From the IMG/VR virus record IMGVR_UViG_3300020165_000025, positions 1 through 56,130 of that record: a stretch of 56,130 bases of DNA; one strand, 5' to 3'. Source of the DNA: a virus (taxonomy: Duplodnaviria; Caudoviricetes). How positions within the stretch are numbered: the first letter of the stretch is position 1; each line of letters opens with the position of its first letter. The position numbers and the translations under genes are program-made. The notes below the pieces were generated by a model, which was not told where the DNA came from, made no database searches, and was given only the letters and a program-made list of their open reading frames with translations. Positions 4,279-56,062 of the stretch are shown here, piece by piece.

Positions 4279-6384
4279 TCAGAATCCTCCTTCTTGCGGA
4301 TCGTCCGGATTGTCATCTGGTGGCACTAAAGTGGTAACCTCTGGCTGGGTAGTGGTGGATGGAGGATCGCAGTCTCCTACGCAACTACAATCTTCACAGC
4401 TAAAAGTACAGTCAGGATTGCTTATTCCACAATCGGCAATTGGCGCATCAGGCTGGTCGCAACACTGCTGGAAATTACACGCACAGTTACCTGCGCAGCA
4501 AGGGCATGATGTGTCTGACGCTTGCGCTGTTACAGTCCAAGCGGGTGGTGCATCACAAGACCCTGTTGCATTTGGATTGTCAGCACTGTTATCCGTGTAG
4601 TCAACTTGACAGGTGTTCATGTCAAGACTCCATCTATCTGGATCATTAGCCTCTTTATCAGCGTTACACGTTACTGTTCCAGACCAAGTGTCTCCACATC
4701 CAAGGGTTCCATTTGCAGTATACGTGTGTGAGCCTGTACATTTATTGTCTCCCCCAACTCTTGTCGCTGTTGCAGAGCCTGTATCAGAATAAACGCAGTC
4801 GCCAACTATATTGACGCTGGCCGCAACTGTTATACTGTCTGGACAGCAGCAGTTTTCAGGCGGCTGTGTCGAAGTGGTTGTTGTGGGTTCGACTGTTGTA
4901 GGTTCAGCGGTTGTTGAACCTCCAGAATTTAAACATTGGCTATCAAGTGTCTGACCAAACTCCGCAGGTGTACAAGGAGTTCCAATTGTAATATCTTCGC
5001 CTCCTGATCGATATATACAATCGCACCCATTAGGGCATTGATCGCTACCAATGTTGTAGCCCCAAGATTGTCCATCGCAGTACAGCTCACACGGCGATCC
5101 GCAAGGGTCTTCAGTCGTTGTAGGCTGAACGGTGGTCGTGGGTGCATCTGGATCAACGGTGGTCGTGGGTGCATCTGGATCAACGGTGGTCGTGGGTGCA
5201 TCTGGATCAACGGTGGTCGTGGGTGCATCTGGATCAACGGTGGTTGTAGGCTCGGCAGTAGTTGTAGGCTCTTCACTCGGGTTGTAGCCTTCTGGACAGC
5301 AGCAGCAGCATCCAACAGGATCGTTGCAAAAAACCTCAACTATACTGCCATCAATCACGCTGACACATTCTAATCTTTCACCGACCGTTTGTATCATTTT
5401 ACACCCACCAACAGGTGTGCATGGCTGACCAGTAATACTATCTGTTCCGCAGTTTGAAAGTGGGCCAGTTCTGCATGATGGACAGTTGGGAGGAGATAAG
5501 GTAGTGCCCGGAGGATCTGTACTTGGAGGATCTGTGCTTGGGGAAACCGTGGTCGTTGGCGAAGACTCACAATCAACAAGATCGCAAGTTTTACCCGGAT
5601 GAAAAACTGACTCAGAATTTTGGCATAACGTTATGTCTACTTCAGAGCACACTACAGCTCCAGTTAACAGGTCGGATGTGCAACAAGCGCCTGTGCATGG
5701 ATTATTTGGAATCTCAGAACATGGGGATGATAAGCATACGCCACCTAAAAGTACGCATGTAGGGCAATCAAAATTGTCACTACAGAAACCATTGATGCAG
5801 CAACCATTGTTTGGAGGGGCAGTTGTGAACTCGTCTTGCGGGCAAAATTGACTATTGTTATTGCAATCAAAGTAAGGAAAAAAATGATCTTCCTCAAAGC
5901 AGTCGCTCGAAGCTTCACAACTTTCTTTGCTTACCGGAGATACGCAGGTGTAATATTTACCTTCAGGAGTTTGGCGGCATATGCAGCACATGCCGAGCGG
6001 ATCTGGGTCTACGGTTGTTGAGTCTGTACAGTTTTCATTACAGTCTGCATCACTAGAATACACAACGGTTACGTTAGTGGTTGTAAATCCCGCAGCTATA
6101 CAATCCTGCACCCTTTCTTGTGGATGCCCATCGTCTGGTATACAACCCAGTTTAGTTACTGTTCCTAGAAACGAGTTTCTTTCCATGCAGCAGACAGTAT
6201 CTTGCTCGTTTGGACAAGTTATCTGAGAGCAATTCTGGTTAGGGTAGAAGTTAGAACATTCTCGGGATAGACAATCTCCTGCCGCTACGTTGTTTTCGCA
6301 CTGATTTGAAGAACAACCATAACAACAAGCCCCTCTGGGTGATGGTGGAGGCGTTCCCCCTTCACATTGACAACACTGTGTCAT
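4279..6384 (-). CDS. Cys/Thr-rich 701-aa protein with mucin-like PTTT repeats, probably virion-associated
   Basis: Many CC/GACC modules and PTTTVDPDA x4; AGGAG RBS; lies in the structural operon. Confidence 0.7.
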   Translation of the reverse strand: MTQCCQCEGGTPPPSPRGACCYGCSSNQCENNVAAGDCLSRECSNFYPNQNCSQITCPNEQDTVCCMERNSFLGTVTKLGCIPDDGHPQERVQDCIAAGFTTTNVTVVYSSDADCNENCTDSTTVDPDPLGMCCICRQTPEGKYYTCVSPVSKESCEASSDCFEEDHFFPYFDCNNNSQFCPQDEFTTAPPNNGCCINGFCSDNFDCPTCVLLGGVCLSSPCSEIPNNPCTGACCTSDLLTGAVVCSEVDITLCQNSESVFHPGKTCDLVDCESSPTTTVSPSTDPPSTDPPGTTLSPPNCPSCRTGPLSNCGTDSITGQPCTPVGGCKMIQTVGERLECVSVIDGSIVEVFCNDPVGCCCCCPEGYNPSEEPTTTAEPTTTVDPDAPTTTVDPDAPTTTVDPDAPTTTVDPDAPTTTVQPTTTEDPCGSPCELYCDGQSWGYNIGSDQCPNGCDCIYRSGGEDITIGTPCTPAEFGQTLDSQCLNSGGSTTAEPTTVEPTTTTSTQPPENCCCPDSITVAASVNIVGDCVYSDTGSATATRVGGDNKCTGSHTYTANGTLGCGDTWSGTVTCNADKEANDPDRWSLDMNTCQVDYTDNSADNPNATGSCDAPPAWTVTAQASDTSCPCCAGNCACNFQQCCDQPDAPIADCGISNPDCTFSCEDCSCVGDCDPPSTTTQPEVTTLVPPDDNPDDPQEGGF
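5128..5244. repeat. Perfect 27-bp tandem repeat, about 4.3 copies, encoding PTTTVDPDA
   Basis: aacggtggtcgtgggtgcatctggatc at 5128, 5155, 5182, 5209. Confidence 0.95.
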
Positions 6385-11333: not shown

Positions 11334-12347
11334 CTAGAATGAGCCAAGAATGACTCTTCTGTTGTCAAGAACGCCGAATCCAAGTTCAGCAAATCCATAG
11401 TAACCAGCTCTCTGCTGACGATGAAGTGTAGGATCTTCAAAGATCTCTACATTTTGCTTCATTGGCATGATGAAGCTATCATTGGCTCCTTGATCAAGGC
11501 CAACGACAAGCTCTACATCAGAACCTTCGAGAGCACCGCCAAGGCCGTCTGCTGCTGAGAAGAAGGTTTGGTACTCTTGACCTTCACCAAGCTCATCTAG
11601 GTCGTGTAGGTTCACGCCAAAGATGCGGGTGATAGGAGCACCACCTTCGCTGGCAGTGTAGATTTGAGTTCTGATTTGATCAGAAACTTGATCTAGACCC
11701 CAGTTTCTTACGTCCTCAAGAGCTTCTGGAGAAACGTAAAGGTCAGTCAAACGACCACGATTAGCCGATCCAGTGTTACCACCTGCATTTCGACGCATAA
11801 CAGTCTGCATCAAGGAAACTAATCGCTTGCTGAACATTCCGGCTGTGGCATCACCATCATAAACCAAAATGTTTCGATCTACACCAGCGGCCAAAAGGGT
11901 GTGCCATCCGTCATCGTTCATTTTTTTAACGAATCCGGCCTCTAGGACTTGCATAGCGCGACCTACAATATCCCAACGAGCTTCACGAGCGTAACGCAAC
12001 AAGTAATCAATACTTGATGTGATGCTGTAGGTTGGAATCATAACATAGTCGCTCTCGACCGCACGTTCCGGTACGCGACCATGACCCGGGTTGGTGTAAG
12101 CTACGTGCTCACCTTCAAGTCCGGGAGAAATCAAGTCGAGTGGGTATTCTGTGGAAGCTCCCGGCTCTACATTGATTGTTTCAAAAATATTTCCAAGAAT
12201 ATTGCCTACGAGAACGCCCTTGCGAAGAGGGAGTTCAAGAGCTTTAGCAAATTCTCTTTGAGCGGCATAAGCAACGTTTTGGTCGCTATCGCCCGACTTT
12301 TTTAGCAATGAAATAAACTCATCACTAGGTCTTTCTGTAAGTGACAT
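11334..12347 (-). CDS. Major capsid protein (HK97 fold, putative)
   Basis: 337 aa; follows portal, protease and decoration genes; strong AAGGAG RBS; terminator downstream. Confidence 0.8.
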   Translation of the reverse strand: MSLTERPSDEFISLLKKSGDSDQNVAYAAQREFAKALELPLRKGVLVGNILGNIFETINVEPGASTEYPLDLISPGLEGEHVAYTNPGHGRVPERAVESDYVMIPTYSITSSIDYLLRYAREARWDIVGRAMQVLEAGFVKKMNDDGWHTLLAAGVDRNILVYDGDATAGMFSKRLVSLMQTVMRRNAGGNTGSANRGRLTDLYVSPEALEDVRNWGLDQVSDQIRTQIYTASEGGAPITRIFGVNLHDLDELGEGQEYQTFFSAADGLGGALEGSDVELVVGLDQGANDSFIMPMKQNVEIFEDPTLHRQQRAGYYGFAELGFGVLDNRRVILGSF

Positions 12348-16520: not shown

Positions 16521-18512
16521 TTAGTATAAATCTTGCGTGCCGTCTGTAAACCAGTTTGGCCCAGAGTATAAGCTTCCGTTTTTTTCAGTCTTTTCAATCG
16601 TCGCAAAGCCTCCAAAGAAGTTATATTCTGCCGCCGTTGGTAGTCTTGCTAGGGTTCTTGCGGCCATATTAGCCATAAGCAATGCTGAGTAACGGTCTTT
16701 CCTGAGCTTACCCTTCTTTCCCGTACCAATTACGGTTTCTGGTGTATCCCATTTGTCTCGACCTGATGGCGTAGAAGTAATGGCTATCATTGCAAGCTCA
16801 TCCTTCATATCCTCAATCTCCATAACACACTGCTCTAAAGTGTCGTAGACTCTACCTTTTAGTCCATCTTCAGCGTTTGCTATACCTAAGCTAACTGTGT
16901 CAAACATAGGAAACAGCAAAACTTTATCTTCAAAATCTTTTCTCATTCCGTGATTGGCTTCTGCAAGCCAGTCGTACTTGGAAAACTGACACATTTCTAA
17001 GATATGTAATCCACGCTCGTCGTCTGTGTCCTTTGGTTTACCGTCGTCGATAACAGGCCATATAGCAAGCTCACCTTCTTTGATTTTGTCTTTGTCGTGT
17101 AGAGATTCCATAACAGCAATACCGCCTCCACCAGCATCCATGGCGATATGGATACACGGGAATCTAATCATCAAGTCTCTAATTTTCCTAGCGCAGTATG
17201 CGTAAAAGTCTGTTTCGGCAGAGTATCCACTCTTGACTTTACCTTTGTGTTCTTCTCTGTTTGTTGTCCAGCAGTGAACAATACGCCTGTGGTCTGCGTT
17301 TACCTCTAGTACAACGATGCTGAAATTGTCAACCTCAGAAGCGGGGTCAACACCAAAGATATACTTCTTGTCTTTGTCACCAATAAGTTGTGATTGGAAG
17401 TTAATATGATGACCGTCTGATGTCTTGATTGGTTGTTTATCTGTGTATTTTTCTTCTACAACGCACGACTCGATAAGAGAACGCTTGAAGAAGCCCTGAG
17501 AGTCCCGTGTGAAGCACGCGCCAAATTCCATCTGATATATACCGGCATGGACTGTAGCCTTACTACGGGCGACCTGAGAGGCATCCATAAAGCCGTCTGG
17601 AAGCAACTCGTATGGAACGCGGATAATAGAATAGTCTTTCCAGTTAAAGTCTTTAGGGGGGTCTTCCCCAAAGACTTCTCTTAACCTACTACTTTTCCCT
17701 TGACTTTTAATTATAGACTTCCACTTTTTCCAATACTCTGCAAAATGGTTAAAATCATAGTAGGCCGTTCCCGATAGGATGATTTGGTTGTCTCTCTTTT
17801 TTACTACGTCCCTACTTTCTTGTTCTATTTCTAGACCTAATTCTGCTGCTTTCTTTTTTGCTGCAATCTTTTTAACATTCTCAATAGGGTCTGAGCTGAC
17901 CGCAGCGAAACCAGCAACGACAGTCTCAAAGATGTCTCTGGGTATAGAAGCAAACTCGTCAGAAATAATGTCGTTAGCACGCTGACCACGAATCTTTTGC
18001 CCGTCTCCCAAGGGAAGGCAAGTGACGCGAGATTTATTAATACGCATAACACAACGGTCAACATCACGTCTCGGCCCACTACTCGCATCGCACATACTCC
18101 TTAAAATTGGTGCATTGTTCCAAATTGTTTCCATGTATTCAAAAAGAACCTTGGACTGCCTAAAAGCAGCACCAACGACTACGACTTTACGTTCAGGCAG
18201 AATCAAAGCTCTAATCATTGAATATAAAGATAGAATAAAGGATTTACCAAAACCACGACTAGCTATAAGCATGGGAAATTTTCTATTCCACATCTCGCAC
18301 AAAAACAGTGCTTGGGACGGTAGTATGTTTATATTGAATATGTACTTACATAAAAAAGAAAAATACTCTGGTCTGGTCATCAACCAAAGCATTTTATAAT
18401 GCGCGTCGTCCCCGCTGAATTTAACAATGTCAAACGGGTTGACTATTGTTGATTCGTCTAAGCCTTCTAGGTTTAACCAAGCTTCGTCTAGGTCTTTTAG
18501 TTTTGCTGTCAT
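16521..18512 (-). CDS. terL: Terminase large subunit
   Basis: Walker A ASRGFGKS, RG.RA, Walker B IISDE, nuclease FGVDPA and C-terminal KDRYSA. Confidence 0.9.
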   Translation of the reverse strand: MTAKLKDLDEAWLNLEGLDESTIVNPFDIVKFSGDDAHYKMLWLMTRPEYFSFLCKYIFNINILPSQALFLCEMWNRKFPMLIASRGFGKSFILSLYSMIRALILPERKVVVVGAAFRQSKVLFEYMETIWNNAPILRSMCDASSGPRRDVDRCVMRINKSRVTCLPLGDGQKIRGQRANDIISDEFASIPRDIFETVVAGFAAVSSDPIENVKKIAAKKKAAELGLEIEQESRDVVKKRDNQIILSGTAYYDFNHFAEYWKKWKSIIKSQGKSSRLREVFGEDPPKDFNWKDYSIIRVPYELLPDGFMDASQVARSKATVHAGIYQMEFGACFTRDSQGFFKRSLIESCVVEEKYTDKQPIKTSDGHHINFQSQLIGDKDKKYIFGVDPASEVDNFSIVVLEVNADHRRIVHCWTTNREEHKGKVKSGYSAETDFYAYCARKIRDLMIRFPCIHIAMDAGGGGIAVMESLHDKDKIKEGELAIWPVIDDGKPKDTDDERGLHILEMCQFSKYDWLAEANHGMRKDFEDKVLLFPMFDTVSLGIANAEDGLKGRVYDTLEQCVMEIEDMKDELAMIAITSTPSGRDKWDTPETVIGTGKKGKLRKDRYSALLMANMAARTLARLPTAAEYNFFGGFATIEKTEKNGSLYSGPNWFTDGTQDLY

Positions 18513-19162
18513 TTTAAGCTTTCTATATTTTCCAGTTTTCTTGTGTCTAGAACACTATCGGCAAATCCGTAATACACAGCTTCATTAGCGTCTAAAATCC
18601 AGTCTCCATCTTTTAGCTTTCTTTTTATGTTTGTCTTTATTTTTTCTAAGGTTAGATTTTTGATGGACTCTTTAAAATACTTACCTTTGATACAGCCATT
18701 GGCGTAAATGTCGATCATTGTCTCTGTGTTCTTTTTCTCAGCCTTTGCGTGATTTTGCGAGCTTAGATAATCACAGGTGAACCCTGAAGTCCCGTAGTGT
18801 AACAAGAAATATGCTCTGGGCATCATAACTCTTTTATCTGCCGCTTGAAGTATAATACTACTCATAGAGGTAGCAGCGCCGTATGCTATGATTGTTACAA
18901 AAGACTTGCAAACTCTAATAGCATCGAATATAGCCATTCCAGCGTCCCACTCTCCCCCATCGCTATACATGTGAATCAAAATAGGCTTTGACGACTGTGA
19001 ATCTAAGATTCTAATGTTTTTATAAAAGTTTGCCGCCATTCTGTATTCTACTCCGGGATCCTCGTCGGTGTTTCCTACATGTCCGTGAAGAAATATCTCT
19101 CTGTTCTTGATGTCTATACCGTAAGAATGTATTTCAGAAGTAATATCTAAACTATTTGTCAT
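18509..19162 (-). CDS. clpP: ClpP-family protease
   Basis: REIFL.G, S.GG...AGMAIFD.I, GAATSMSSII.QA, R.MMP.A..LLH and A.EAV.YGFAD; start moved to MTNSL. Confidence 0.85.
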   Translation of the reverse strand: MTNSLDITSEIHSYGIDIKNREIFLHGHVGNTDEDPGVEYRMAANFYKNIRILDSQSSKPILIHMYSDGGEWDAGMAIFDAIRVCKSFVTIIAYGAATSMSSIILQAADKRVMMPRAYFLLHYGTSGFTCDYLSSQNHAKAEKKNTETMIDIYANGCIKGKYFKESIKNLTLEKIKTNIKRKLKDGDWILDANEAVYYGFADSVLDTRKLENIESLK

Positions 19163-19664
19163 TATTTCCCTCCACTTCGTACAGTTCATTTATTCTTTTT
19201 AATATACTTAAAACAGTCCATTTTGCATTTTTCTTAGAATCACAAAATATTACGTGAATGCCATTGTGCATTTGGTACTCCATTATTCTTCTGAGCATGA
19301 ATTTATTTGTGACTTTCAGTTTCCCCCAATCCTCTTGTGGGATTCCAGATCTATCGGGAAAATCCATCAAGTCTGATAAAGAAAATTCAAAGATCATAAA
19401 TCTATGAGGAAACTCCATCATTCTCTTGATTTCTTTGTTGAATCTCACCATGTCGTGACCAATGTTGTTTGCAAACTCGACCACACTAGCCTTTCTTTCT
19501 ATGCACACCTTGTCCTCTAGCCCTTCCAGACTATAGTCTCCAGTGTCTAGTTTTCTTACTACCATACCTTCGCACTTGTGGTATCTAGAACTACTAGGCT
19601 TAAAGGTGTACCCTTCTTGCTCGCGACTATCTTTGATTATTGTAAACGGTTGTATTTTAGGCAT
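19152..19664 (-). CDS. ERCC4-domain nuclease
   Basis: DSREQ, LDTGDY and IERK motifs. Confidence 0.85.
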   Translation of the reverse strand: MPKIQPFTIIKDSREQEGYTFKPSSSRYHKCEGMVVRKLDTGDYSLEGLEDKVCIERKASVVEFANNIGHDMVRFNKEIKRMMEFPHRFMIFEFSLSDLMDFPDRSGIPQEDWGKLKVTNKFMLRRIMEYQMHNGIHVIFCDSKKNAKWTVLSILKRINELYEVEGNNDK

Positions 19665-19923: not shown

Positions 19924-20165
19924 TCTGCTACCCTCACTTTTATAATTCTAAAATCGAAAAGAAGATCTTTCATTATCTTTGCCATTTTTGGCTTTTGACT
20001 TATTATTAAAGACACAAACTTGAAATGCGCGTTAGAACATGCGTCGTCTGGATCGTTTGCGTCTACAAAAATAATAGGTCTTTGTGAATTAAATTCTTTA
20101 AGATCTATATCTTTGAGTCTGGGTAAAACAAATGTTAAGTCTAACGTAACTTTATAAATTTTCAT
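19920..20165 (-). CDS. Hypothetical protein
   Basis: Overlaps both neighbours in the operon. Confidence 0.6.
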   Translation of the reverse strand: MKIYKVTLDLTFVLPRLKDIDLKEFNSQRPIIFVDANDPDDACSNAHFKFVSLIISQKPKMAKIMKDLLFDFRIIKVRVAE

Positions 20166-21255
20166 TAATATCGTGATCCAACATTTTCTTTACTAGGTCT
20201 TCAAAGCTATGCTTGGGAGTCCAGCCAAGGATCTTATCAGCTTTGCTACAATCACCCCGTAAGTATTCTACCTCTGCTGGTCTATAGAATTCTGGGTCTT
20301 GAACTACTAAGTCAGACCAATTTTCTATATTAATATGAGAAAACGCTACGTCTAGGAACTCGCGAATAGTATGAGTCTCGCCGGTGCAGATAACAAAGTC
20401 CTGTGGGCTGTCCTGTTGGAGCATCATCCACATCGCTTCCACGTAATCTCCTGCGTACCCCCAATCTCTAAATGCTTCTAAGTTACCTAGACGCAGCTTT
20501 GGAAATGTATCTTTTGAAAAGTGCTGATCCTCTACGTCGTATGATGTTCTTTTGTAGATAACGTCTGGAGCGTCCTCTACAGAACCTACCCAAAATGGAT
20601 ATTCATCGTCTGATCTCCATGCTTCAAACTCCCCAATCCACTTGGTGATCTTTCTTGTGACAAATGTCTCGCCTCGTCGTTCACCTTCGTGATTGAATAA
20701 AATGCCAGCACTAGCGTGTAAACCGTAAGCCTCGCGGAATAGTCTAGTCATGTGGTGAGCCGCACACTTAGCAATCGCGTATGGGCTTTGCGGCATAAAT
20801 TTAGTCTCTTCGTTTTGAAATTTATTTTGAGACCTGTCTACATCATAATTTTTTCCAAACATCTCAGAAGAACTAGCCTGATAGAACCTAGCATCAATTC
20901 CAAGATCGACTATTGATTGTAAAATATTCAAACAGCCTTTGCCTGTTATGTCCCAAGTGAGTGCTGGTTGCTTAAAAGACACTGCTACATGGCTTTGAGC
21001 CGCTAAATTGTAGATTTCATCTACGTCTGCGTGTTCTTTTAGAATGTTATTTATACAAAGAGAATCAGTAATGTCACCACATTCGAGAATGAAATTTTCA
21101 TTACCAAGATTGTGATTGATTCTATCTGTGCTTTTTGTACTCGACCTTCTATGAACACCAACCACTTTATAACCTTTTTCAAGCAGTAGGTCTAATAGGT
21201 GACTACCGTCCTGTCCAGTTATTCCAAATATGATTGCTTTTTTTCTATCTTCCAT
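20152..21255 (-). CDS. gmd: GDP-mannose 4,6-dehydratase
   Basis: GITGQDG, YNLAAQSHV, YQASSSE, PQSPYAIAK, GILFNHE, FVTRKIT, RDWG. Confidence 0.95.
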   Translation of the reverse strand: MEDRKKAIIFGITGQDGSHLLDLLLEKGYKVVGVHRRSSTKSTDRINHNLGNENFILECGDITDSLCINNILKEHADVDEIYNLAAQSHVAVSFKQPALTWDITGKGCLNILQSIVDLGIDARFYQASSSEMFGKNYDVDRSQNKFQNEETKFMPQSPYAIAKCAAHHMTRLFREAYGLHASAGILFNHEGERRGETFVTRKITKWIGEFEAWRSDDEYPFWVGSVEDAPDVIYKRTSYDVEDQHFSKDTFPKLRLGNLEAFRDWGYAGDYVEAMWMMLQQDSPQDFVICTGETHTIREFLDVAFSHINIENWSDLVVQDPEFYRPAEVEYLRGDCSKADKILGWTPKHSFEDLVKKMLDHDINENL

Positions 21256-30457: not shown

Positions 30458-30601
30458 CGTGTCACTACACTGTGCTATAATACAGTATAACAAAAAAAGA
30501 GAAGCGGAACTGCTATAACAACCGCACTTGCAAGAGGAAGCAAGTAAAAAAATCCTCGGAACACTTACTATTTATTCCGATCTTGAAAGGATCAAAAAAT
30601 T

Positions 30602-30826
30602 ATGTTTCAACACAAACTACAAACCAAAACCGATTCCATGCGATTGTTTCGCACTACTGCCGACCTATTAAAATGGTCGCAAGATAATCCAGACGTTAAG
30701 ATTGTCAAAGGCAATCACGATGCCAGAACTGGCACGACTACTTGGAACGTCCCACAATGGGACAAGGTTCGAGCAGATTACTGCTCTGCTAAATTGGCTA
30801 CCATCAAGCGTTATGGTTCTAATTAA
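30602..30826 (+). CDS. Early hypothetical protein
   Basis: AAAGGA RBS in the GATC hairpin. Confidence 0.7.
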   Translation: MFQHKLQTKTDSMRLFRTTADLLKWSQDNPDVKIVKGNHDARTGTTTWNVPQWDKVRADYCSAKLATIKRYGSN

Positions 30827-30829
30827 CGC

Positions 30830-30975
30830 TCGCAACTGCAACACGATTGCAGGTAACAATTCAACTTCATCTAATGCCGAGATGACCGATAGGGTGGCGA
30901 GATAGTTCGCCTTAAAATGCCAACGCGGTAACAAGACCGGCTCTCCACGCTCGGGAGAGGTAAAAACAGAGCCAG
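30830..30975 (+). ncRNA. Putative structured RNA ending in an H-type pseudoknot
   Basis: Hairpins CTGCAA/TTGCAG, TCATCT/AGATGA, GGCGA/TCGCC, CTCTCC/GGAGAG. Confidence 0.5.
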
Positions 30976-30981
30976 AACATT

Positions 30982-31064
30982 GACGTAAGTGCTTGGCATT
31001 AAAGGACTTACGACGGCGGCGGCAGCCCCCAGCGACCTAAGTCCTTATATAGCAATGACTTAGA
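30982..31064. repeat. Paired palindromic element (52-bp period)
   Basis: Spacers ggcatta and atatagc. Confidence 0.9.
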
Positions 31065-31127
31065 ACAATTTTAAAAAAAACTAAAGATAACCCCTTGACA
31101 ATGCCGATATATACTATATAATGGAAT

Positions 31128-31267
31128 CATGAGACAGGGTGCGAAGGCCGTTCGATTCGACCGTGACCTTGGTGGGGGATGGGCGCGCGACCACTCCCCG
31201 ATGGCAACACCCTTGTCTCACCTTAATAAACCAAGTAAAACCATCACATCACTGCCAGCGAAAAAAA
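31128..31267 (+). ncRNA. Promoter-driven sRNA cassette 1 (TGAGACA...TGTCTCA stem plus conserved tail)
   Basis: Starts at +1 of promoter 31095; frame shared with 32767-32898; interior has a T-loop arm. Confidence 0.65.
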
Positions 31268-31358
31268 GTCAAAATAAATTAAAGAACCCCCTTGACAAAT
31301 GCCGATAATATACTATAATAGGGCATACGGGACGCGAACAACTTTAAAGGGTAAAAAG

Positions 31359-31547
31359 ATGCTAGACGACTTCACAACTCAAATCCAATCCGATGAAGCA
31401 AACGAGCCTACCGCCGCCGACTGGCAGGACTACAATGAATGGCTTGACCGCTTGGAGCGTAAAGAGTCGATCCGTCGATTGATGGATGCAATGGATGGAT
31501 TGCAGCAAGACGAAGGCCATTGCCTTGACTTTGGACTTTGTAAATAA
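31359..31547 (+). CDS. Early hypothetical protein
   Basis: Own promoter, AAAGGG RBS. Confidence 0.7.
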   Translation: MLDDFTTQIQSDEANEPTAADWQDYNEWLDRLERKESIRRLMDAMDGLQQDEGHCLDFGLCK

Positions 31548-31626
31548 ATTTTATTTTACCCCCTTGACAACTGTAATCCATACTGTATAATAGAAGCATA
31601 AGAACTTAACAACACGAGGTAACAAA

Positions 31627-31932
31627 ATGGCATTTTTCACTTTCGATCAAAACAACTCTGGCGGCTCTTACGTTGGCGATTTTCAATTCATTATCATCGA
31701 AGCCCCTCATGCTGAATGGGCGAACGATATGGCTGCCGATCACGGTATCTATTTCAATGGTTGTAGTCTCGGATGGGATTGCGATTGTTGCGGTGATCGT
31801 TGGAGTCGTGTAGACGATGACGATGCGACCGATTCCCCAGAAATTTGGGGTACGCCTGCTGCTGAGTATCGCGATTGGAACGGTAAAGCACCTGCTTATA
31901 AAATTGTCAGGAGTTTACCCGCAGGGGCTTGA
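31627..31932 (+). CDS. Conserved phage protein (QNNSGG...DCxCCGDRW family)
   Basis: GAGGT RBS; recognisable motif. Confidence 0.8.
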   Translation: MAFFTFDQNNSGGSYVGDFQFIIIEAPHAEWANDMAADHGIYFNGCSLGWDCDCCGDRWSRVDDDDATDSPEIWGTPAAEYRDWNGKAPAYKIVRSLPAGA

Positions 31933-32001
31933 CAAACTAAATTGATACTGTATAATATAATTATACGAAGCACACTTTTGAAAGGTTTTTAGAGGTTTAT
32001 T

Positions 32002-32157
32002 ATGAACGACGATTTTGCTGTTGATCCCGACGATTTTTGCACTATTGATTTCCTTGATTCAATCGGGTATGATAACGGTGATGATGACTGCGATGGTTAC
32101 GATCCTGATGACAATCATGGTTTTCAGAACGGCGTTTTTGACAACATCATTTTTTAG
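32002..32157 (+). CDS. Extremely acidic 51-aa protein
   Basis: GAGGT RBS; 16 Asp, no Lys or Arg. Confidence 0.6.
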   Translation: MNDDFAVDPDDFCTIDFLDSIGYDNGDDDCDGYDPDDNHGFQNGVFDNIIF

Positions 32158-32169
32158 AAAGGTTTTGAT

Positions 32170-32328
32170 ATGTTAGATGAAGATTTTTACTATGATGATC
32201 AGGTTTATGATCTGATTGACGAGGCTGAAAGTTTCGACGCGGATTTTTATGGCGAGCCGACACGCCACGAGGATGACGGTAATTATGACGACCTACTTAA
32301 CGAATTGGATTTTTTAGATGACGAATAA
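32170..32328 (+). CDS. Extremely acidic 52-aa protein
   Basis: AAAGG RBS; 22 Asp/Glu, one Arg. Confidence 0.6.
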   Translation: MLDEDFYYDDQVYDLIDEAESFDADFYGEPTRHEDDGNYDDLLNELDFLDDE

Positions 32329-32602
32329 AATTGCGACACAAATTAAAGATGTTAGCGATCAATTTCGCGGGCGTGCTGCCGTTTTCAATGTGGCTCCTGC
32401 GATGGAGGACTACGATGGAAACAAGTGGGATCACGTTGTTGTTTCGACTGCATCGGCAATTACTGGCACAGAAACTTACATCTTTCCATCCGACCCCGAA
32501 GGTAACATTGTAGATTGGTGCGAGTTGGAAGGATCAATGCGGGGTTGTGATAGTTGGAGCGATGCTTTGAATAACGCGGGCTACTCGCTGGAAGAGAGTT
32601 AA
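32318..32602 (+). CDS. Early hypothetical protein
   Basis: Overlaps the upstream ORF; V.VS....TETYIFP.D..G motif. Confidence 0.75.
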   Translation: MTNKIATQIKDVSDQFRGRAAVFNVAPAMEDYDGNKWDHVVVSTASAITGTETYIFPSDPEGNIVDWCELEGSMRGCDSWSDALNNAGYSLEES

Positions 32603-32608
32603 GATGTT

Positions 32609-32691
32609 GCCCTAAGTCCTTATCCCGCAAGGGGTTAGGGCGCTGGGGGCGGCCCCGGCCGTCGTAAGTCCTTACACACCAACGACTTACA
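32609..32691. repeat. Paired palindromic element (52-bp period)
   Basis: Spacers atcccgc and acacacc. Confidence 0.9.
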
Positions 32692-32766
32692 ACAAATATG
32701 AAAAAACTTTGAGAATTACTATTGACAACCCCTTGCAATTGACGATATATATAGTATAATGGGAGC

Positions 32767-32898
32767 ATGAGACACGGGGCAGGTGGTCGAGGTAGACCCC
32801 CTCCATGGAGAGGCAGTACGCCGAGGTAATGCAGCCCACCGCCCCTGTCTCACCTTAATAAACCAAGTAAAGGCATCACATCACTGCCAGCGAAAAAA
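32767..32898 (+). ncRNA. Promoter-driven sRNA cassette 2
   Basis: Same stem and tail as 31128; interior homologous to 33961-34044. Confidence 0.7.
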
Positions 32899-32954
32899 GT
32901 AAAAAAAATAAAAATACCCCTTGACATTCGCCAACAATATGGTATAATATAAGT

Positions 32955-33101
32955 ATGAAAGAGACAATTACAATCAAGATCAAGCTGGCGAAACCGGCAA
33001 TCGGCCATCAGGCCAACACGCATCAGGTTCACGACAATCGGCCTAAGCGACAACGTACACGCCAAGCACAACGTAGTGCATGGCAAAAAGATGTTAACTA
33101 G
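32955..33101 (+). CDS. 48-aa basic protein, probably leaderless
   Basis: ATG 7 nt after TATAAT; HDNRPKRQRTR. Confidence 0.55.
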   Translation: MKETITIKIKLAKPAIGHQANTHQVHDNRPKRQRTRQAQRSAWQKDVN

Positions 33102-33114
33102 AAAGGTTAAAAAG

Positions 33115-33276
33115 ATGAGCATTACATTCACCAAAGACAAAGAGACAAAGAACAAGGTTCGTTTTAGCGTTAACTCGCAAGACGTTCAGGGCAGTATCTA
33201 CGTTAGCAAGGATTCAGAACTTGCAAGCAATGATACAATTTCCCTAGAAATTTCAGAATATGAAGAAGTTTCTTAA
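33115..33276 (+). CDS. Small hypothetical protein
   Basis: AAAGG RBS. Confidence 0.65.
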   Translation: MSITFTKDKETKNKVRFSVNSQDVQGSIYVSKDSELASNDTISLEISEYEEVS

Positions 33277-33362
33277 AGTTTACCCCTTGACTTTGCCGAT
33301 AATTATTGTATAATGGTAGTGTACTACCGAGTTTAACAACTGTTTTTTTAGAAAGGTTTGAT

Positions 33363-33590
33363 ATGAAAATCAAGCAAACTGTAGAGTTAACTTTTGAGTC
33401 CTGCTGGATGGGCTGGGACGGCCTGCGGATTACAGACGTAGTAGGTAACGAGGCCGTTATCAAAATGTCTGATGAGGCTTGTCTTAAGTTGGAGTCGTCA
33501 CTTATTAGAAAGTGCGACGAGATTCGCGAAAAGGCAGCGGAAGCCGCTCGCCAAGCAATCGCCGATAGTGTGGAGGAAGAGAATGAGTAA
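33363..33590 (+). CDS. Hypothetical protein
   Basis: AAAGG RBS, own promoter. Confidence 0.7.
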   Translation: MKIKQTVELTFESCWMGWDGLRITDVVGNEAVIKMSDEACLKLESSLIRKCDEIREKAAEAARQAIADSVEEENE

Positions 33591-33759
33591 AGATACTCAA
33601 ACGCCGGATGTAGTAATCGGCCACCAATTTGCTGCTGGTACTGTTGTCGCCATCAATGGCAACTCTGTTTCGATTGACACTGCGGAAGGTGTTAAGCAAT
33701 TTAGTTTTTCTCAAGTGGAAGGTTTTATCAATGATCAACGATCTTTATCTCAAGCGTAA
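33583..33759 (+). CDS. Hypothetical protein
   Basis: GGAGGA upstream; overlap-coupled. Confidence 0.6.
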   Translation: MSKDTQTPDVVIGHQFAAGTVVAINGNSVSIDTAEGVKQFSFSQVEGFINDQRSLSQA

Positions 33760-33934
33760 CGAGCGCAAAGTCAGTTTTTTGTATCCCAAGAACGGGAACA
33801 AAAACATTCTCCGGCAAGTTAATGGTGTAAAGATTCGTTCCTACACCAGCAAGAACGGTCGCGGGATTACCGTCAAAGAGGATAACGGTTTGCACAAGTC
33901 GTTCCTAGTTTCAAAGTGCGTGGCCTCACTATAA
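33731..33934 (+). CDS. Hypothetical basic protein
   Basis: GGAAGG RBS. Confidence 0.6.
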   Translation: MINDLYLKRNERKVSFLYPKNGNKNILRQVNGVKIRSYTSKNGRGITVKEDNGLHKSFLVSKCVASL

Positions 33935-33960
33935 TCTAGGCTAACCTTTCGTGTTGTTGC

Positions 33961-34044
33961 GAAGACGCGGAGCAGGTGGTTGAGGTAGTTTCTGATCCGG
34001 CATCAGACAGTACGCCGATGTAATGCAGTCCACCGCTCCGCTTC
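33961..34044 (+). ncRNA. Small structured RNA, paralogue of the cassette 2 interior
   Basis: GCAGGTGGTYGAGGTAG-hairpin-CAGTACGCCGAKGTAATGCAGYCCACCGC shared with 32776-32845. Confidence 0.7.
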
Positions 34045-34060
34045 TTTGTTTTTAATATAT

Positions 34061-34211
34061 CTAGGGGTGCTTGCATGATACCTATGGAAATGTGGGTGGG
34101 TAATTGACATAAGTCACCACCTAATAAGGTGCAAGATTCGCTTGCTGGGATACCACTCGCGGAAGTTTGGGCAGTCGTGTATTCGAAATCGTTCGATTCC
34201 CACACTCCTAG
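34061..34211 (+). ncRNA. Putative ~150-nt structured RNA
   Basis: Closing stem CTAGGGGTG/CACTCCTAG, inner CTTGCA/TGCAAG, GTTCGATTC motif, T tract after. Confidence 0.55.
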
Positions 34212-34232
34212 CTTTTATTTTGATTGATGTTT

Positions 34233-34304
34233 TGTGTGGTAGCTCAGTGGTAGAGCGATGGACTGTTAATCCATTGGTCGCAGGTTCGAATCCTGCCCGC
34301 ACAG
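34233..34304 (+). tRNA. tRNA-Asn(GTT)
   Basis: Complete cloverleaf; ATGGA-CT-GTT-AA-TCCAT. Confidence 0.95.
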
Positions 34305-34308
34305 CTTT

Positions 34309-34378
34309 GACGTAAACCCTTGGTATCAAAGGACTTAGGGCGGCGGTGGCTGCCAGCGGCCGTGACACGTTAGGTCAC
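34309..34378. repeat. Single palindrome, GC linker, then an inverted GTGAC-N7-GTCAC site where the second palindrome would be
   Basis: Spacer ggtatca; gtgacacgttaggtcac at 34362. Confidence 0.8.
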
Positions 34379-34515
34379 TATCAAGCCATAAAATAAAAAA
34401 AAGACAAAAAAAATATATTTTAAAAAAAGTGGGTTTTCTTTCAAGCATAGGGGTTGACATTGCCGATAAATACTGTATAATGATAGAGTAACAAGCACAC
34501 TTCGAAAGGTTTACA

Positions 34516-37455: not shown

Positions 37456-37536
37456 AATTATGTTTTTTTTGGGAAAAATTATCTTTTCACTGGATTTACC
37501 CCTTGACATTGGTCGATAATATAGTATAATGAAAGA

Positions 37537-37623
37537 GTTCCAACGATGGTTCGCTGACCTTTCCAAAGGTCGTAAGGGCTGAGTAAGTCAGTGGGTTCGA
37601 TTCCCACATTGGTTCCTTTTTTT
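37537..37623 (+). ncRNA. Promoter-driven tRNA-like small RNA
   Basis: Perfect T arm GTGGG-TTCGATT-CCCAC, CCAA/TTGG closure, two inner hairpins, T7 tail. Confidence 0.6.
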
Positions 37624-37717
37624 AAGTTTTTAAGGTTTACCCCCTTGACTTTTGCCGTGTGTATGGTATAATTGTGGTATAACCTGTTAGTTTCCCGATC
37701 TTGAAAGGATCAATCTT

Positions 37718-42048: not shown

Positions 42049-44169
42049 ATGAAAATGCAGCAAGAGTCACAGAACGTAGTAGTAAACGGATCATTCGAAA
42101 CCAGTGAATTTGCTACTGGTGATATTTCTTTTCTTGTAGATATGATGTCTGATTATATCTACACCAATAAAGAGCGAGCGATTTTGCGTGAGATTAGCGT
42201 AAACGGTCACGATGCTCAAGTGCGGGCAGGAACCGAGCATATTCCAATCGAGGTGCGTATTCCTACTGTGCTAGACAATACGGTATCCTTCCGAGACTCT
42301 GGTGCTGGACTGTCTGACGCTGGTATTCGAGGTACGTTTTGCGGCATCGGAATCAGCGATAAGCGTGACTCTGACACAGAAACAGGTTGTTTTGGTGTAG
42401 GTACTTTGTCTCCATACTCATTGTGTGATAGTTTTAGTGTAACAAGTTATCACGGCGATACTGTGATCGACTACCTATGTTACCGTGACGAGAGTAGACG
42501 ACCTCAAGTATCCGAGCTAACTCGTAGAGAGCGTAACAAGGACGACCATGATGACCGGACTGGACTGCTCATCAGTATGACCGTGAAGGACAAGGTTAAA
42601 GAGTTTCGCAAGGAAGCTGCCCATGTTTACAAGCATTGGCGAGGTACGACTGTAGACCTTTCTGCACAAAATGTTCTAGAGGACATAGAGGCGGCTAACA
42701 AGAAAATCATTATCGAGAACGACGACTGTATGATCTCTAGCAGTGGCGATTCCGATGATTTTATGTCAGCGTTCCAAGGTAACATCTGTTACGAGATTCC
42801 AAGTTTCGACTGGAGCAGTGTAGGTGAAGATTTACCTGTAACCGCATACCAGTGTGAACGGTTCCTACGTTGTTTTGGTCTGTTAAAGTTTTGTGTCAAA
42901 GAGGATGCGTTGTCATTCGATGTTTCTCGCGAAAAGTTAGAGAACAAGCCAGAAAACATGCTCAAGATCAAAAAGAAGATGGCAAAAGTTATTGCACAGT
43001 TGAACAAGAACGTCATTAAATTGATCGAAGAAGGTGAGACTCCGCTTGATCGTGCGAAAAAGGCTTGGAATTTAGGTTGTGGGGAACTTGGTAGAATTGT
43101 CAAGCAGGACAAGGAAATGGATGCTGTCCTACGCAAATACGAGTTAAAAACCGAGGAACCTCATACCGTGTGGAGTTCTCGTTATCGAGGTAGCGACAAG
43201 TCTGAAAGAACAACGGTTGAGTTGGAAGGGGGACGGGTCAAAGTAAAATACGCATTGGCAAAACCTCGTATGACAACAAGGATCAAGAATTACCTAAAGG
43301 ATAAACGTACTGGTGAATCCATTGTTATTTTTAATGATAAAGAGCAACAGCAACAAGCACAGATTCCCGACTCAGAATTGTTTGACCTTGAAGATTTGCC
43401 AAAGGTTGTTCGCAGTTCAAGCCGTGGAATATCATCGTCAGGCAATGTTTACAGTACCTACAAGACGTTCGAGGTTGATAAGACGCAAACTGGTTGGAAT
43501 GAAAAGAACTACTTTAAGGAATGTGAATTGTCAGTCGAGGAAGGCAGTACCGAACCTATTTATTATGTTGAGATCAATCGTTACGAAATAGTGCGTCAGG
43601 TCTATGGGGACGGGAGGAACGATGCACAGGTGCTTGGTAAAATTTTGCGTCAAGCAGAATCACAAGGATACGATGTTCCAAAGGTTTACGCTCTTAAAAG
43701 TTCGTTTCTTAATTCTAGAAAGTTTAAGAAGCATAAATTTGTGCCGCTTACTGAGTGGATCAAGAATGTTGTACTGCCTGATCTACCAGAATCAAAACGA
43801 TTGCCATGCGAATATCACGATCAGGACATCAAACAATTGTTATCATGCGTAAAACATGAAGGGATTGAACAGTTTGCTAGAGAGTTTTGGGTCAAACTAG
43901 GTTCAGCTTTACACTTCCATGTTCAAGTATGGTTAGGTGGAACCAACATGGGTGATAAAGTGTTGCTGACAGCGAGCGACTCGGATACACACTGGGACAA
44001 GGCGACAAGTATGTATGGACTTCTAGAGTGTATTTCGTGTTACAACTTTAACAATAATAAGGGCGAGTTAGCTAAATACTTAGGAGGAACTGTTATCGAG
44101 GACGAGACTAAGTTATCATGGACTGCTCGCAAGAAAGAAATTATCAAAAATGTTAAAGTTACCGCTTGA
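42049..44169 (+). CDS. rIIA: rIIA-like protein (N-terminal GHKL ATPase)
   Basis: IY.NK.RA.LRE...N..DA, RD.G.GLS, G.FGVG, SRE.L; rIIB-like gene nearby. Confidence 0.8.
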   Translation: MKMQQESQNVVVNGSFETSEFATGDISFLVDMMSDYIYTNKERAILREISVNGHDAQVRAGTEHIPIEVRIPTVLDNTVSFRDSGAGLSDAGIRGTFCGIGISDKRDSDTETGCFGVGTLSPYSLCDSFSVTSYHGDTVIDYLCYRDESRRPQVSELTRRERNKDDHDDRTGLLISMTVKDKVKEFRKEAAHVYKHWRGTTVDLSAQNVLEDIEAANKKIIIENDDCMISSSGDSDDFMSAFQGNICYEIPSFDWSSVGEDLPVTAYQCERFLRCFGLLKFCVKEDALSFDVSREKLENKPENMLKIKKKMAKVIAQLNKNVIKLIEEGETPLDRAKKAWNLGCGELGRIVKQDKEMDAVLRKYELKTEEPHTVWSSRYRGSDKSERTTVELEGGRVKVKYALAKPRMTTRIKNYLKDKRTGESIVIFNDKEQQQQAQIPDSELFDLEDLPKVVRSSSRGISSSGNVYSTYKTFEVDKTQTGWNEKNYFKECELSVEEGSTEPIYYVEINRYEIVRQVYGDGRNDAQVLGKILRQAESQGYDVPKVYALKSSFLNSRKFKKHKFVPLTEWIKNVVLPDLPESKRLPCEYHDQDIKQLLSCVKHEGIEQFAREFWVKLGSALHFHVQVWLGGTNMGDKVLLTASDSDTHWDKATSMYGLLECISCYNFNNNKGELAKYLGGTVIEDETKLSWTARKKEIIKNVKVTA

Positions 44170-55639: not shown

Positions 55640-56062
55640 GGGATGGAGTACGGCAAGTGCTATGATTGTAGACGTTGTTATGGGAGATTATTAGGGACGG
55701 GAGGGGCAGTTCCTCCCCGCCTCCACCAGAAGCACACCACAGTGTGTAAACCGAAAGACTGATTTCGTGGGCGTTTCGGGGTATCGGACTATGAACCGAG
55801 TTAGCCATGCACGTATTGCCTAATCTTAGGAAACGTGAGAGTCTAATAGCTGGTAAAAATCCAGAAAGTCGCAGCGAGATATTATGGTGTGTTTCTGACG
55901 GGGGCGAAATAGATTCGACCTGTAATAAGAAGTAACAATTGCAATCCGTAGTTGACAGAAGGGCTACGTTAAAAATCTGTTAAATGTTAATTGCAGAACC
56001 TAGTTTCGCAATGGCAGCGTAAGCTGTCCGAGGTTCCTATACCTTGTCACCCAACATAGGCA
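55640..56062 (+). ncRNA. ssrA: Circularly permuted (two-piece) tmRNA, tag (A)AEPSFAMAA; outer ends approximate
   Basis: Acceptor end CGCCTCCACCA (55718-55728) lies upstream of the 5' end GGGGGCGAAATAGATTCGAC (55900); G3.U pair; tag ORF 55993-56022. Confidence 0.88.

Follow-up and report, generated by a model that had tools for sequence, protein, structure and literature searches.

What is encoded by two short units of a viral genome that begin alike, end alike and have nothing recognizable in common in between? This question is raised by a 56,130-nucleotide (nt) stretch of DNA from a virus (Duplodnaviria; Caudoviricetes), positions 1 to 56,130 of the IMG/VR record IMGVR_UViG_3300020165_000025, which is referred to below as the window. 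Two units near its middle, termed cassettes 1 and 2, open at strong promoters, share a short terminal stem and a downstream tail, and enclose interiors (payloads) that differ completely. A first-pass annotation of the window had described them as small RNA expression cassettes in which a standard scaffold or putative processing signal displays interchangeable RNA domains (candidate decoys or aptamers). Our analyses of the window and of related marine contigs lead us to favor, with moderate confidence and on sequence evidence, the view that the two units are separate small RNA genes belonging to a modular cassette family of one uncultured marine lineage, the putative products of which would be early, abundant and trans-acting.

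Anatomy of the two cassettes

Unit 1 occupies positions 31129–31268 and unit 2 positions 32767–32899, each of them beginning 6 nt past the -10 box of a sigma-70 promoter. The elements that make up the two units and their surroundings, including a free copy of the payload of cassette 2 (termed M2), are as follows.

30978–31073, plus strand: double-hairpin repeat module (GACGTAAGTCCTTA type; repeat families D4, D6, D7 and D8) located 5' of the cassette 1 promoter
31095–31122, plus strand: sigma-70 promoter of cassette 1 (TTGACA-16-TATAAT, 12/12)
31129–31220, plus strand: cassette 1 RNA, with the frame helix AUGAGACAGGGUG / CACCCUUGUCUCA enclosing payload class E (sequence and predicted fold)
31146–31163, plus strand: tRNA-type T arm within payload E (18-mer identical to tRNA-Phe and tRNA-Val T arms of contigs L164 and L168)
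31174–31199, plus strand: GC hairpin of payload E, loop palindrome GCGCGC (sequence; part of the predicted fold)
31221–31268, plus strand: tail 1, consisting of a weak hairpin, UAAA, a C-rich spacer, GCCAGC 33 nt past the stem and an A tract
31292–31319, plus strand: next promoter, directly 3' of tail 1 (12/12)
32608–32700, plus strand: double-hairpin repeat module located 5' of the cassette 2 promoter (families D6–D8)
32733–32760, plus strand: sigma-70 promoter of cassette 2 (TTGCAA-16-TATAAT, 10/12)
32767–32852, plus strand: cassette 2 RNA, with the frame helix enclosing payload M2 (covariance model R1, 91.5 bits at 32775–32848; predicted fold)
32853–32899, plus strand: tail 2 (92% identical to tail 1; GCCAGC 33 nt past the stem)
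32921–32948, plus strand: next promoter after tail 2, serving a leaderless 48-amino acid (aa) gene at 32955–33101 (12/12; ATG 6 nt past the -10 box)
33959–34053, plus strand: free M2 copy in a terminator-type stem (GCGAAGA...UCUUUGU followed by a U run) at an operon end (R1 score; fold -40.4 kcal/mol, z -3.31)

The anatomy given in the first-pass annotation is confirmed by these analyses. Both units begin at the +1 position of a strong promoter, and the quoted opening AUGAGACA and closing TGTCTCA (UGUCUCA in the RNA) are present in both, 70–80 nt apart. The 8-mer ATGAGACA is found in the window only at 31129 and 32767, a count that is by itself at chance level (2 seen vs. 2.33 expected, with 72 of 100 shuffles reaching 2), and the closing strands read TTGTCTCA at 31213–31220 and CTGTCTCA at 32845–32852. 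The tails, which had been called near-identical, form a 62-nt direct repeat of 92% identity (family D20) containing a 19-mer, CATCACATCACTGCCAGCG, that occurs twice in the window and in none of 100 shuffles. The two interiors are unrelated, as had been stated (local alignment z = -0.6 against 100 shuffles); interior 1 contains the T arm and the GC hairpin attributed to it, and interior 2 recurs free near 33961 with 80% column identity. Predicted folds close the frame helix in both cassette 1 (93 nt, -40.6 kcal/mol, z -2.07) and cassette 2 (87 nt, -40.0 kcal/mol, z -3.44). No cassette has a match in Rfam 15, either at the gathering score across the whole window, at E ≤ 10 on 30500–34400, or at E ≤ 1 on 8 related loci.

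The product of the 48-aa leaderless gene (plus strand) carries an arginine-rich motif, RPKRQRTRQAQRSAWQK, and matches no family. This gene is conserved in contig L102, and an unrelated protein is found in its place in contigs L057, L058 and L079.

A family of cassettes with exchanged payloads

Relatives of the cassettes were collected by scanning public collections with the 20-mer of the M2 core. The metagenome scan yielded 62 loci, 46 of which contain the whole motif when inspected by eye, the other 16 being chance matches in coding sequence; the scan of species-representative genomes yielded 18 loci, of which only those on two small contigs of one metagenome-assembled genome are genuine. The marine phage clade that includes the window accounts for about 43 of the metagenome loci, which show 65–95% nucleotide identity to the early region of the window, and 15 distinct cassettes were picked from the contigs of this clade.

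The opening word of all 15 cassettes, 5–9 nt past the -10 box, is U(G/A)AGAC, replaced by UAAGGC in the two of class H and by UGAGAA in that of class G, and the closing word is GUCU(C/U)A or differs from it only slightly. The second pair of the frame helix covaries across them (G-C in 6, A-U in 7 and G-U in 2), the seventh pair is A-U in 7, G-U in 7 and G-C in 1, and pairs 1 and 3–6 are nearly invariant (13–15 of 15). The interiors of these units fall into at least 7 classes (viz. M2, B, C, D, E, G, and H). Local alignments give z scores of at least 19.7 within classes and of -1.7 to 2.8 between them, with the exception of a single borderline pair, H and M2 (z 4.5, arising from the common word GGUUGRGGUAG), which may be distantly akin judging from this word. 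The catalogue of interiors from related phages thus bears out the claim that the payloads differ in kind, and the possibility that they represent one diverged family came out negative.

The exchange of payloads is seen directly at corresponding positions of related contigs. In the slot of cassette 2, which could be compared in six contigs, the interior is M2 in three, class H in two and class B in one, and all six can be aligned with one another in the 5' promoter, frame and tail as well as in the next promoter and the first part of the next gene. In the slot of cassette 1, which lies 5' of the homologue of gene 31627, the window has class E, L080 has class G and L102 has M2. For most of the units the predicted fold closes the frame and is better than that of shuffled sequences (z -4.7 for D, -4.5 and -4.4 for H, and -3.4 for M2). 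The units contain no conserved open reading frame (ORF): in the two units of the window, the frames opened by an AUG at +1 differ and encode 59 aa and 20 aa, and relatives start with GUAAGAC or GUGAGAC.

Two contigs of the clade show variant arrangements. In L107 (2749–2900) a class C and a class B frame unit follow one another in tandem, with CUGGC alone between them. The frame of cassette D in L105 (~5640–5770) is palindromic, with a TATAAT box at the right distance on each strand, and this unit might therefore be transcribed bidirectionally.

In the tail, a small hairpin in fixed register (UUAUC/GAUAA, one pair of which is U-A instead of C-G in the window) is followed by (A)UAAAG, by a C-rich stretch that varies, and by GCCAGC with an A tract after it. 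Exactly 33 nt separate the stem from GCCAGC in all 10 cassettes with this type of tail, among which the distance from GCCAGC to the next -35 box varies from 21 to 32 nt and unit length from 69 to 133 nt; the constancy of this 33-nt ruler argues that the tail is a part of the RNA unit rather than of the next promoter. Tail identity within a genome is 0.92, 0.73, 0.71, and 0.73 in four genomes, compared with a between-genome mean of 0.58. In the viral collection, the tail word CATCACATCACTGCCAGCG gave a single match, lying in coding sequence with unrelated flanks, and TGTCTCACCTTAATAAACC gave none.

Two other roles considered for the tail did not hold up. The first-pass annotation had raised the possibility of an antisense promoter, and our scan of the minus strand found no sigma-70 match inside either tail; a sigma-54-like GG-N10-GC pattern fits 6 of 10 tails by eye, neither tail of the window being among the six. 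The tail was also rejected as a base-pairing seed, the sole long match in the window being a 13-nt copy, and not a complement, at 11646–11658. This copy of the tail core, CACTGCCAGCGAA in the minus-strand reading, lies inside a 337-aa structural gene of the minus strand, where ~0.05 chance matches are expected.

By eye, the mRNA promoters of the window begin with words similar to the opening of the cassettes (GCAUAAGAAG, GCAUAAGAAC, UUAUACGAAG, and UCAUACGACAG). The 5' strand resembles the usual start of an early transcript, so that what is specific to the cassettes is the complementary 3' strand together with the tail. The original claim of one standard scaffold with interchangeable RNA domains is accordingly upheld in respect of payload exchange within the clade and weakened in respect of the 5' half of the scaffold; it also needs correction in that M2 is used outside this frame, in a terminator-type stem of the window and in other phages. 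These data also bear on the view that the shared frame lacks any scaffold function, its 5' strand being the usual start of a promoter module and its tail the edge of a recombination module, so that only the payloads, or nothing at all, would be functional. This view, which we consider unlikely, accords with the similar beginnings of the window's mRNAs, with the greater likeness of tails within than between genomes (as by duplication or gene conversion), with the occurrence of M2 in a different stem elsewhere, and with the repeated terminator/promoter modules that flank the units, as they do in the case of the promoter-early stem-loops (PeSLs) of T4-type phages, which are repeated terminator/promoter elements serving as points of shuffling and exchange (PMC4122927). 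However, complementarity of the 3' and 5' strands is retained in 15 cassettes whose payloads differ, including the exchange of G-C for A-U (6 vs. 7), and the 33 nt to GCCAGC is kept exactly in 10 of 10 cassettes despite divergence of the spacer, which is unexpected for neutral recombination scars.

M2, payload E and their genomic setting

A single covariance model (R1) scores 91.5 bits on cassette 2 and 91.4 bits on the free copy (33968–34042), the next best score in the window being 9.1 bits. The outer stem of the free copy, GCGAAGA-C-GCGGAGC / GCUCCGC-UUCUUUGU, is followed by UUUUU, and it is not called by a simple terminator scan because its loop exceeds the limit of the scan. The loci of the clade show M2 in two forms, viz. 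the promoter cassette and a stem ended by a U run at an operon end, the latter in many contigs, and in two further metagenome loci, L071 and L078, M2 lies within other terminator-like stems; the M2 core is found with at least three kinds of closing stem.

The structure of M2 is borne out by covariation, which was counted for 22 pairs on 31 distinct, mutually related sequences with a 3' core fixed by the search pattern. In these sequences, 96.6% of cells are paired, compared with 90.0% in shuffles and 32–56% in slid controls, and 11 pairs change on both sides vs. 5.5 in shuffles, with none of 500 shuffles reaching 11. The covarying pairs comprise 6 of 10 in the outer helices and 5 of 6 in the apical helix, and the six proposed inner pairs never covary. 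The 5' core, GGUNNAGGUAG, is nearly invariant though it was not fixed by the search pattern, and the many strand-specific G-U pairs point to an RNA rather than to duplex DNA. The apical loop, in variants of even length, is always a 4-nt palindrome (CAUG, CCGG, GUAC, UCGA, or GCGC), and loops of 5 nt contain CCGG, a pattern of sequence that suggests either loop-loop self-pairing or correction by a mechanism acting on DNA palindromes. Cofolding was discarded as evidence of a dimer, in that the predicted dimer lies 13–15 kcal/mol below two monomers but any hairpin behaves likewise.

Outside the marine clade, M2 was found as a single copy in each of three unrelated viral genomes, all of which encode a MoxR ATPase and a ViaA-like vWA protein near it. 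A fixed partnership with this gene pair was rejected, since M2 is present in only 3 of the 51 viral loci that encode this vWA family, and the link therefore looks like shared phage ancestry. A blastn search with the free copy returned chance hits only (E ≥ 2). Mimicry of rRNA was likewise rejected: when the two cassettes, the free copy and the tail were locally aligned with the E. coli rrnH operon, the best score was 27, compared with a shuffle maximum of 26. Judged from its sequences, M2 is a new conserved class of structured RNA with no Rfam match, which may overlap with motifs in a catalogue of candidate structured viral RNAs (PMC10690425). Its strong conservation and its presence in distant groups of phages point to a target that is itself widely conserved.

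The T-arm 18-mer of payload E, GGCCGTTCGATTCGACCG, is identical to the T arms of a tRNA-Phe and a tRNA-Val called by ARAGORN in two unrelated viral contigs (L164 and L168), and a third match adjoins a tRNA-Leu cluster (5 matches examined in all). Among the loci collected no homologue of payload E was found, and the viral scan gave T-arm matches only. Neither ARAGORN nor Rfam RF00005 calls a tRNA at the cassettes, the five tRNAs of the window all lying elsewhere; payload E possesses the T arm alone.

Three other regions of the window resemble candidate non-coding RNAs. At 37503–37625 (plus strand) a consensus promoter drives a tRNA-like RNA of ~90 nt with the T arm GUGGGUUCGAUUCCCAC, the closing stem GUUCCAAC/AUUGGUUCC and a U run, which is called by neither ARAGORN nor Rfam and has a cassette-like layout (module, promoter, non-coding RNA, promoter, gene). 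A structured region at 34060–34232 (plus strand), between the free M2 copy and tRNA-Asn, contains the T-loop-like GUUCGAUUCC. The segment 29577–29664 shows 92–98% identity across contigs of the clade vs. 70–80% in its flanks, making it a candidate conserved non-coding RNA.

The phage represented by the window has no close cultured relative. Its terminase shows at best 24–27% identity to those of Microcystis and Bacillus phages, the phage is not recognizably T4-like, and a megablast search of 30900–34300 against phage records gave no match. The same region is contained in marine metagenome runs from 16 studies (3 of which may be the window's own source), and the lineage is a common, marine and uncultured one. 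Its minus strand carries the structural genes, up to ~24 kb; beyond this point the plus strand carries early and middle genes, together with ~25 near-consensus sigma-70 promoters, five tRNAs (ARAGORN/Rfam) and a permuted transfer-messenger RNA (tmRNA). Other features of the window are:

18509–19189: ClpP-like protease
20152–21255: GDP-mannose 4,6-dehydratase
42049–44169: rIIA-like protein
55664–56022: permuted tmRNA gene

The double-hairpin module is present in at least 13 copies between 24642 and 38895, each of them preceding a promoter; repeat families D1–D9 correspond to promoters and D4 and D6–D8 to hairpin modules, and a module plus promoter stands ahead of both cassettes. Each module consists of the conserved stems GACGTAAGTCCTTA...TAAGGGTTTAGG, a GC-rich stretch and a second hairpin GTAAGTC, and has no U runs. 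These modules may be PeSL-like recombination points or factor-dependent terminators. Contigs from two runs (X20 and X5) connect 31018/31019 to 32733, omitting ~1714 nt between the module/promoter repeats of the two cassettes; with 28 nt only on its shorter side, this junction weakly suggests a strain that would lack the whole block.

Function, alternatives and known systems

Taking these results together, we propose that each unit would be transcribed from its own strong early sigma-70 promoter and that, once the payload is made, the opening bases of the RNA, (A/G)U(G/A)AGAC, would pair with GUCU(C/U)A. Through this frame pairing both ends of a folded RNA of ~70–130 nt would be clamped in a helix. 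The tail, with its fixed geometry, most likely sets the 3' end, either by cleavage or by release ahead of the next promoter, and the product would be a stable and abundant RNA. We infer from this arrangement that the transcripts are discrete, that their ends are protected, that the tail is processed and that the RNA acts in trans. The payloads may represent unrelated functional RNA modules that probably bind or titrate host or phage factors, M2 possibly pairing with itself through its palindromic loop, and phages would trade them by recombining within the conserved flanks, namely the terminator/promoter module on the left and the tail plus next promoter on the right. The reading as small RNAs is favored because the 3' strand is complementary across unrelated payloads, the ruler is exact, M2 occurs in other stems, and the gene after cassette 2 is leaderless and has its own promoter, so that its expression does not require the cassette transcript as mRNA.

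Several observations weigh against this reading. The 5' strand of the frame, as seen above, is not specific to cassettes but resembles mRNA starts such as GCAUAAGAAC; the class G cassette of L080 is poorly structured (z +1.4) and forms only ~5 frame pairs; the fold of payload E, having no homologue, lacks the support of covariation; and that of M2 draws its support from related sequences collected through part of the motif itself. A simple scan detects nothing resembling a terminator within or immediately beyond either tail. In two metatranscriptome runs of one study, assembled contigs span payload, tail, next promoter and next gene (31162–31542 and 32678–33269), although such contigs show neither ends, strand nor level and are uninformative for the parts they do not cover; one of them begins 5' of the cassette promoter, indicating read-through or carry-over of DNA.

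A more speculative extension, possible though not probable in our estimation, is that the stem and the 33-nt ruler tail are a handle for one conserved factor involved in processing or in the assembly of a ribonucleoprotein, that the exchanged modules (among them a mimic of the tRNA T arm and a self-pairing M2) are early decoys or adaptors directed against the host, and that M2 is a new class common to distant phage lineages that hits a universal target, possibly as a homodimer.

Structured RNAs with phage-specific sequence, located just after early promoters and two per genome, are known from the nut sites of phage lambda and the put sites of HK022. The cassettes resemble them in lying just after early promoters, in numbering two per genome and in having genome-specific tails, and they could accordingly be cis-acting antitermination leaders that counter downstream terminator modules, with a boxB-like tail hairpin and a boxA-like CUUAAC-like stretch. 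Such leaders would head gene blocks bounded by hairpin modules, as the units do, and would fit the simple scan that finds no terminator after them, the RNA-library contigs that bridge a cassette and the next gene, and the arginine-rich 48-aa protein encoded just 3' in the window and in L102; some tails, reading CUUUAACAA or CCUUAACAAAC, also resemble the rrn boxA. However, a polymerase-binding RNA fold does not easily accommodate one frame with unrelated payloads, M2 itself forms putative terminator stems at operon ends, and a strong promoter follows immediately after each tail. We regard antitermination as quite unlikely. As regards the sharing of boxes and folds by the sites of one phage, the tails are 0.71–0.92 identical but the payloads are mutually unrelated, and boxA-like words occur in some tails only. 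No conserved partner protein in the style of nut/put was found for the cassettes, the arginine-rich protein being replaced in L057, L058, and L079 though cassettes are present there.

A second known architecture is that of YrlA, a bacterial and phage Y RNA bound by Ro60/Rsr, which has a conserved stem pairing its ends and a variable module mimicking tRNA (PMC4201824). The cassettes are similar in that a conserved stem joins the two ends of the RNA and the variable module may carry a T arm, and they could be Y-RNA-like adaptors in which the constant stem and tail bind one protein (as Ro60/Rsr does) and the variable module recruits partners. Both the existence of phage-encoded YrlA (PMC4201824) and the exact 33-nt ruler, which suggests a protein footprint, speak for this possibility, but we judge it very unlikely. 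The payloads are far more diverse than tRNA-like domains. YrlA is encoded within ~4 kb of a Ro60/Rsr (TROVE) gene on the same strand, and in the 56 kb of the phage covered here a Pfam scan of 34 ORFs found no TROVE/Ro60, vWA or MoxR domain. The Rsr motif GNCGAAN0-1G (PMC4201824) is absent near the 5' end, where the frame reads AUGAGACA; payload E has only UGCGAAGG, one base off, and M2 has GGUYGAGG. Rfam, including its YrlA model, gives no match on the cassettes, and the sole YrlA match at E ≤ 10 (34156–34287; 18 bits vs. a gathering score of 69) rests largely on tRNA-Asn.

A reading of the units as leaderless messages for short peptides, translated from an AUG at +1, is scarcely credible, for although the window has leaderless genes of the same geometry (32955 and 35879) and one tail frame yields similar peptides in several contigs (LSHLIKTDKDANVPPAKN), the two AUG-initiated peptides have nothing in common, relatives starting with GUAAGAC lack a start codon, and the tail, rejected as coding sequence, has in-frame stops in 3 of 10 cases, no start codon and a codon-phase variability of 36/40/46 (a slight excess in one phase).

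A narrow full-text literature search found no published description of such cassettes or of M2. The closest parallel to M2 lies in the catalogue mentioned above, in which many candidate motifs overlap intrinsic terminators (PMC10690425); M2 is likewise a phage RNA motif supported by covariation. If the frame works as proposed, it would constitute a naturally occurring scaffold for RNA display, which could be copied to express aptamers in bacteria, and the list of payloads would be a catalogue of the RNA tools used by phages in early infection.

With PeSLs the cassettes share composite terminator/promoter repeats scattered in an early variable region and unrelated inserts in the same syntenic slot, and the exchange of payloads would be best explained by recombination in the repeated flanks, as for PeSLs (PMC4122927). 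The two systems differ in that PeSLs swap small ORFs, whereas the swapped unit here is a non-coding folded RNA with its own closing stem and a tail of fixed length, in a phage that is not T4-like. Phage small RNAs are known singly; here, one lineage seems to trade many folded RNAs on a single frame for their expression and stability.

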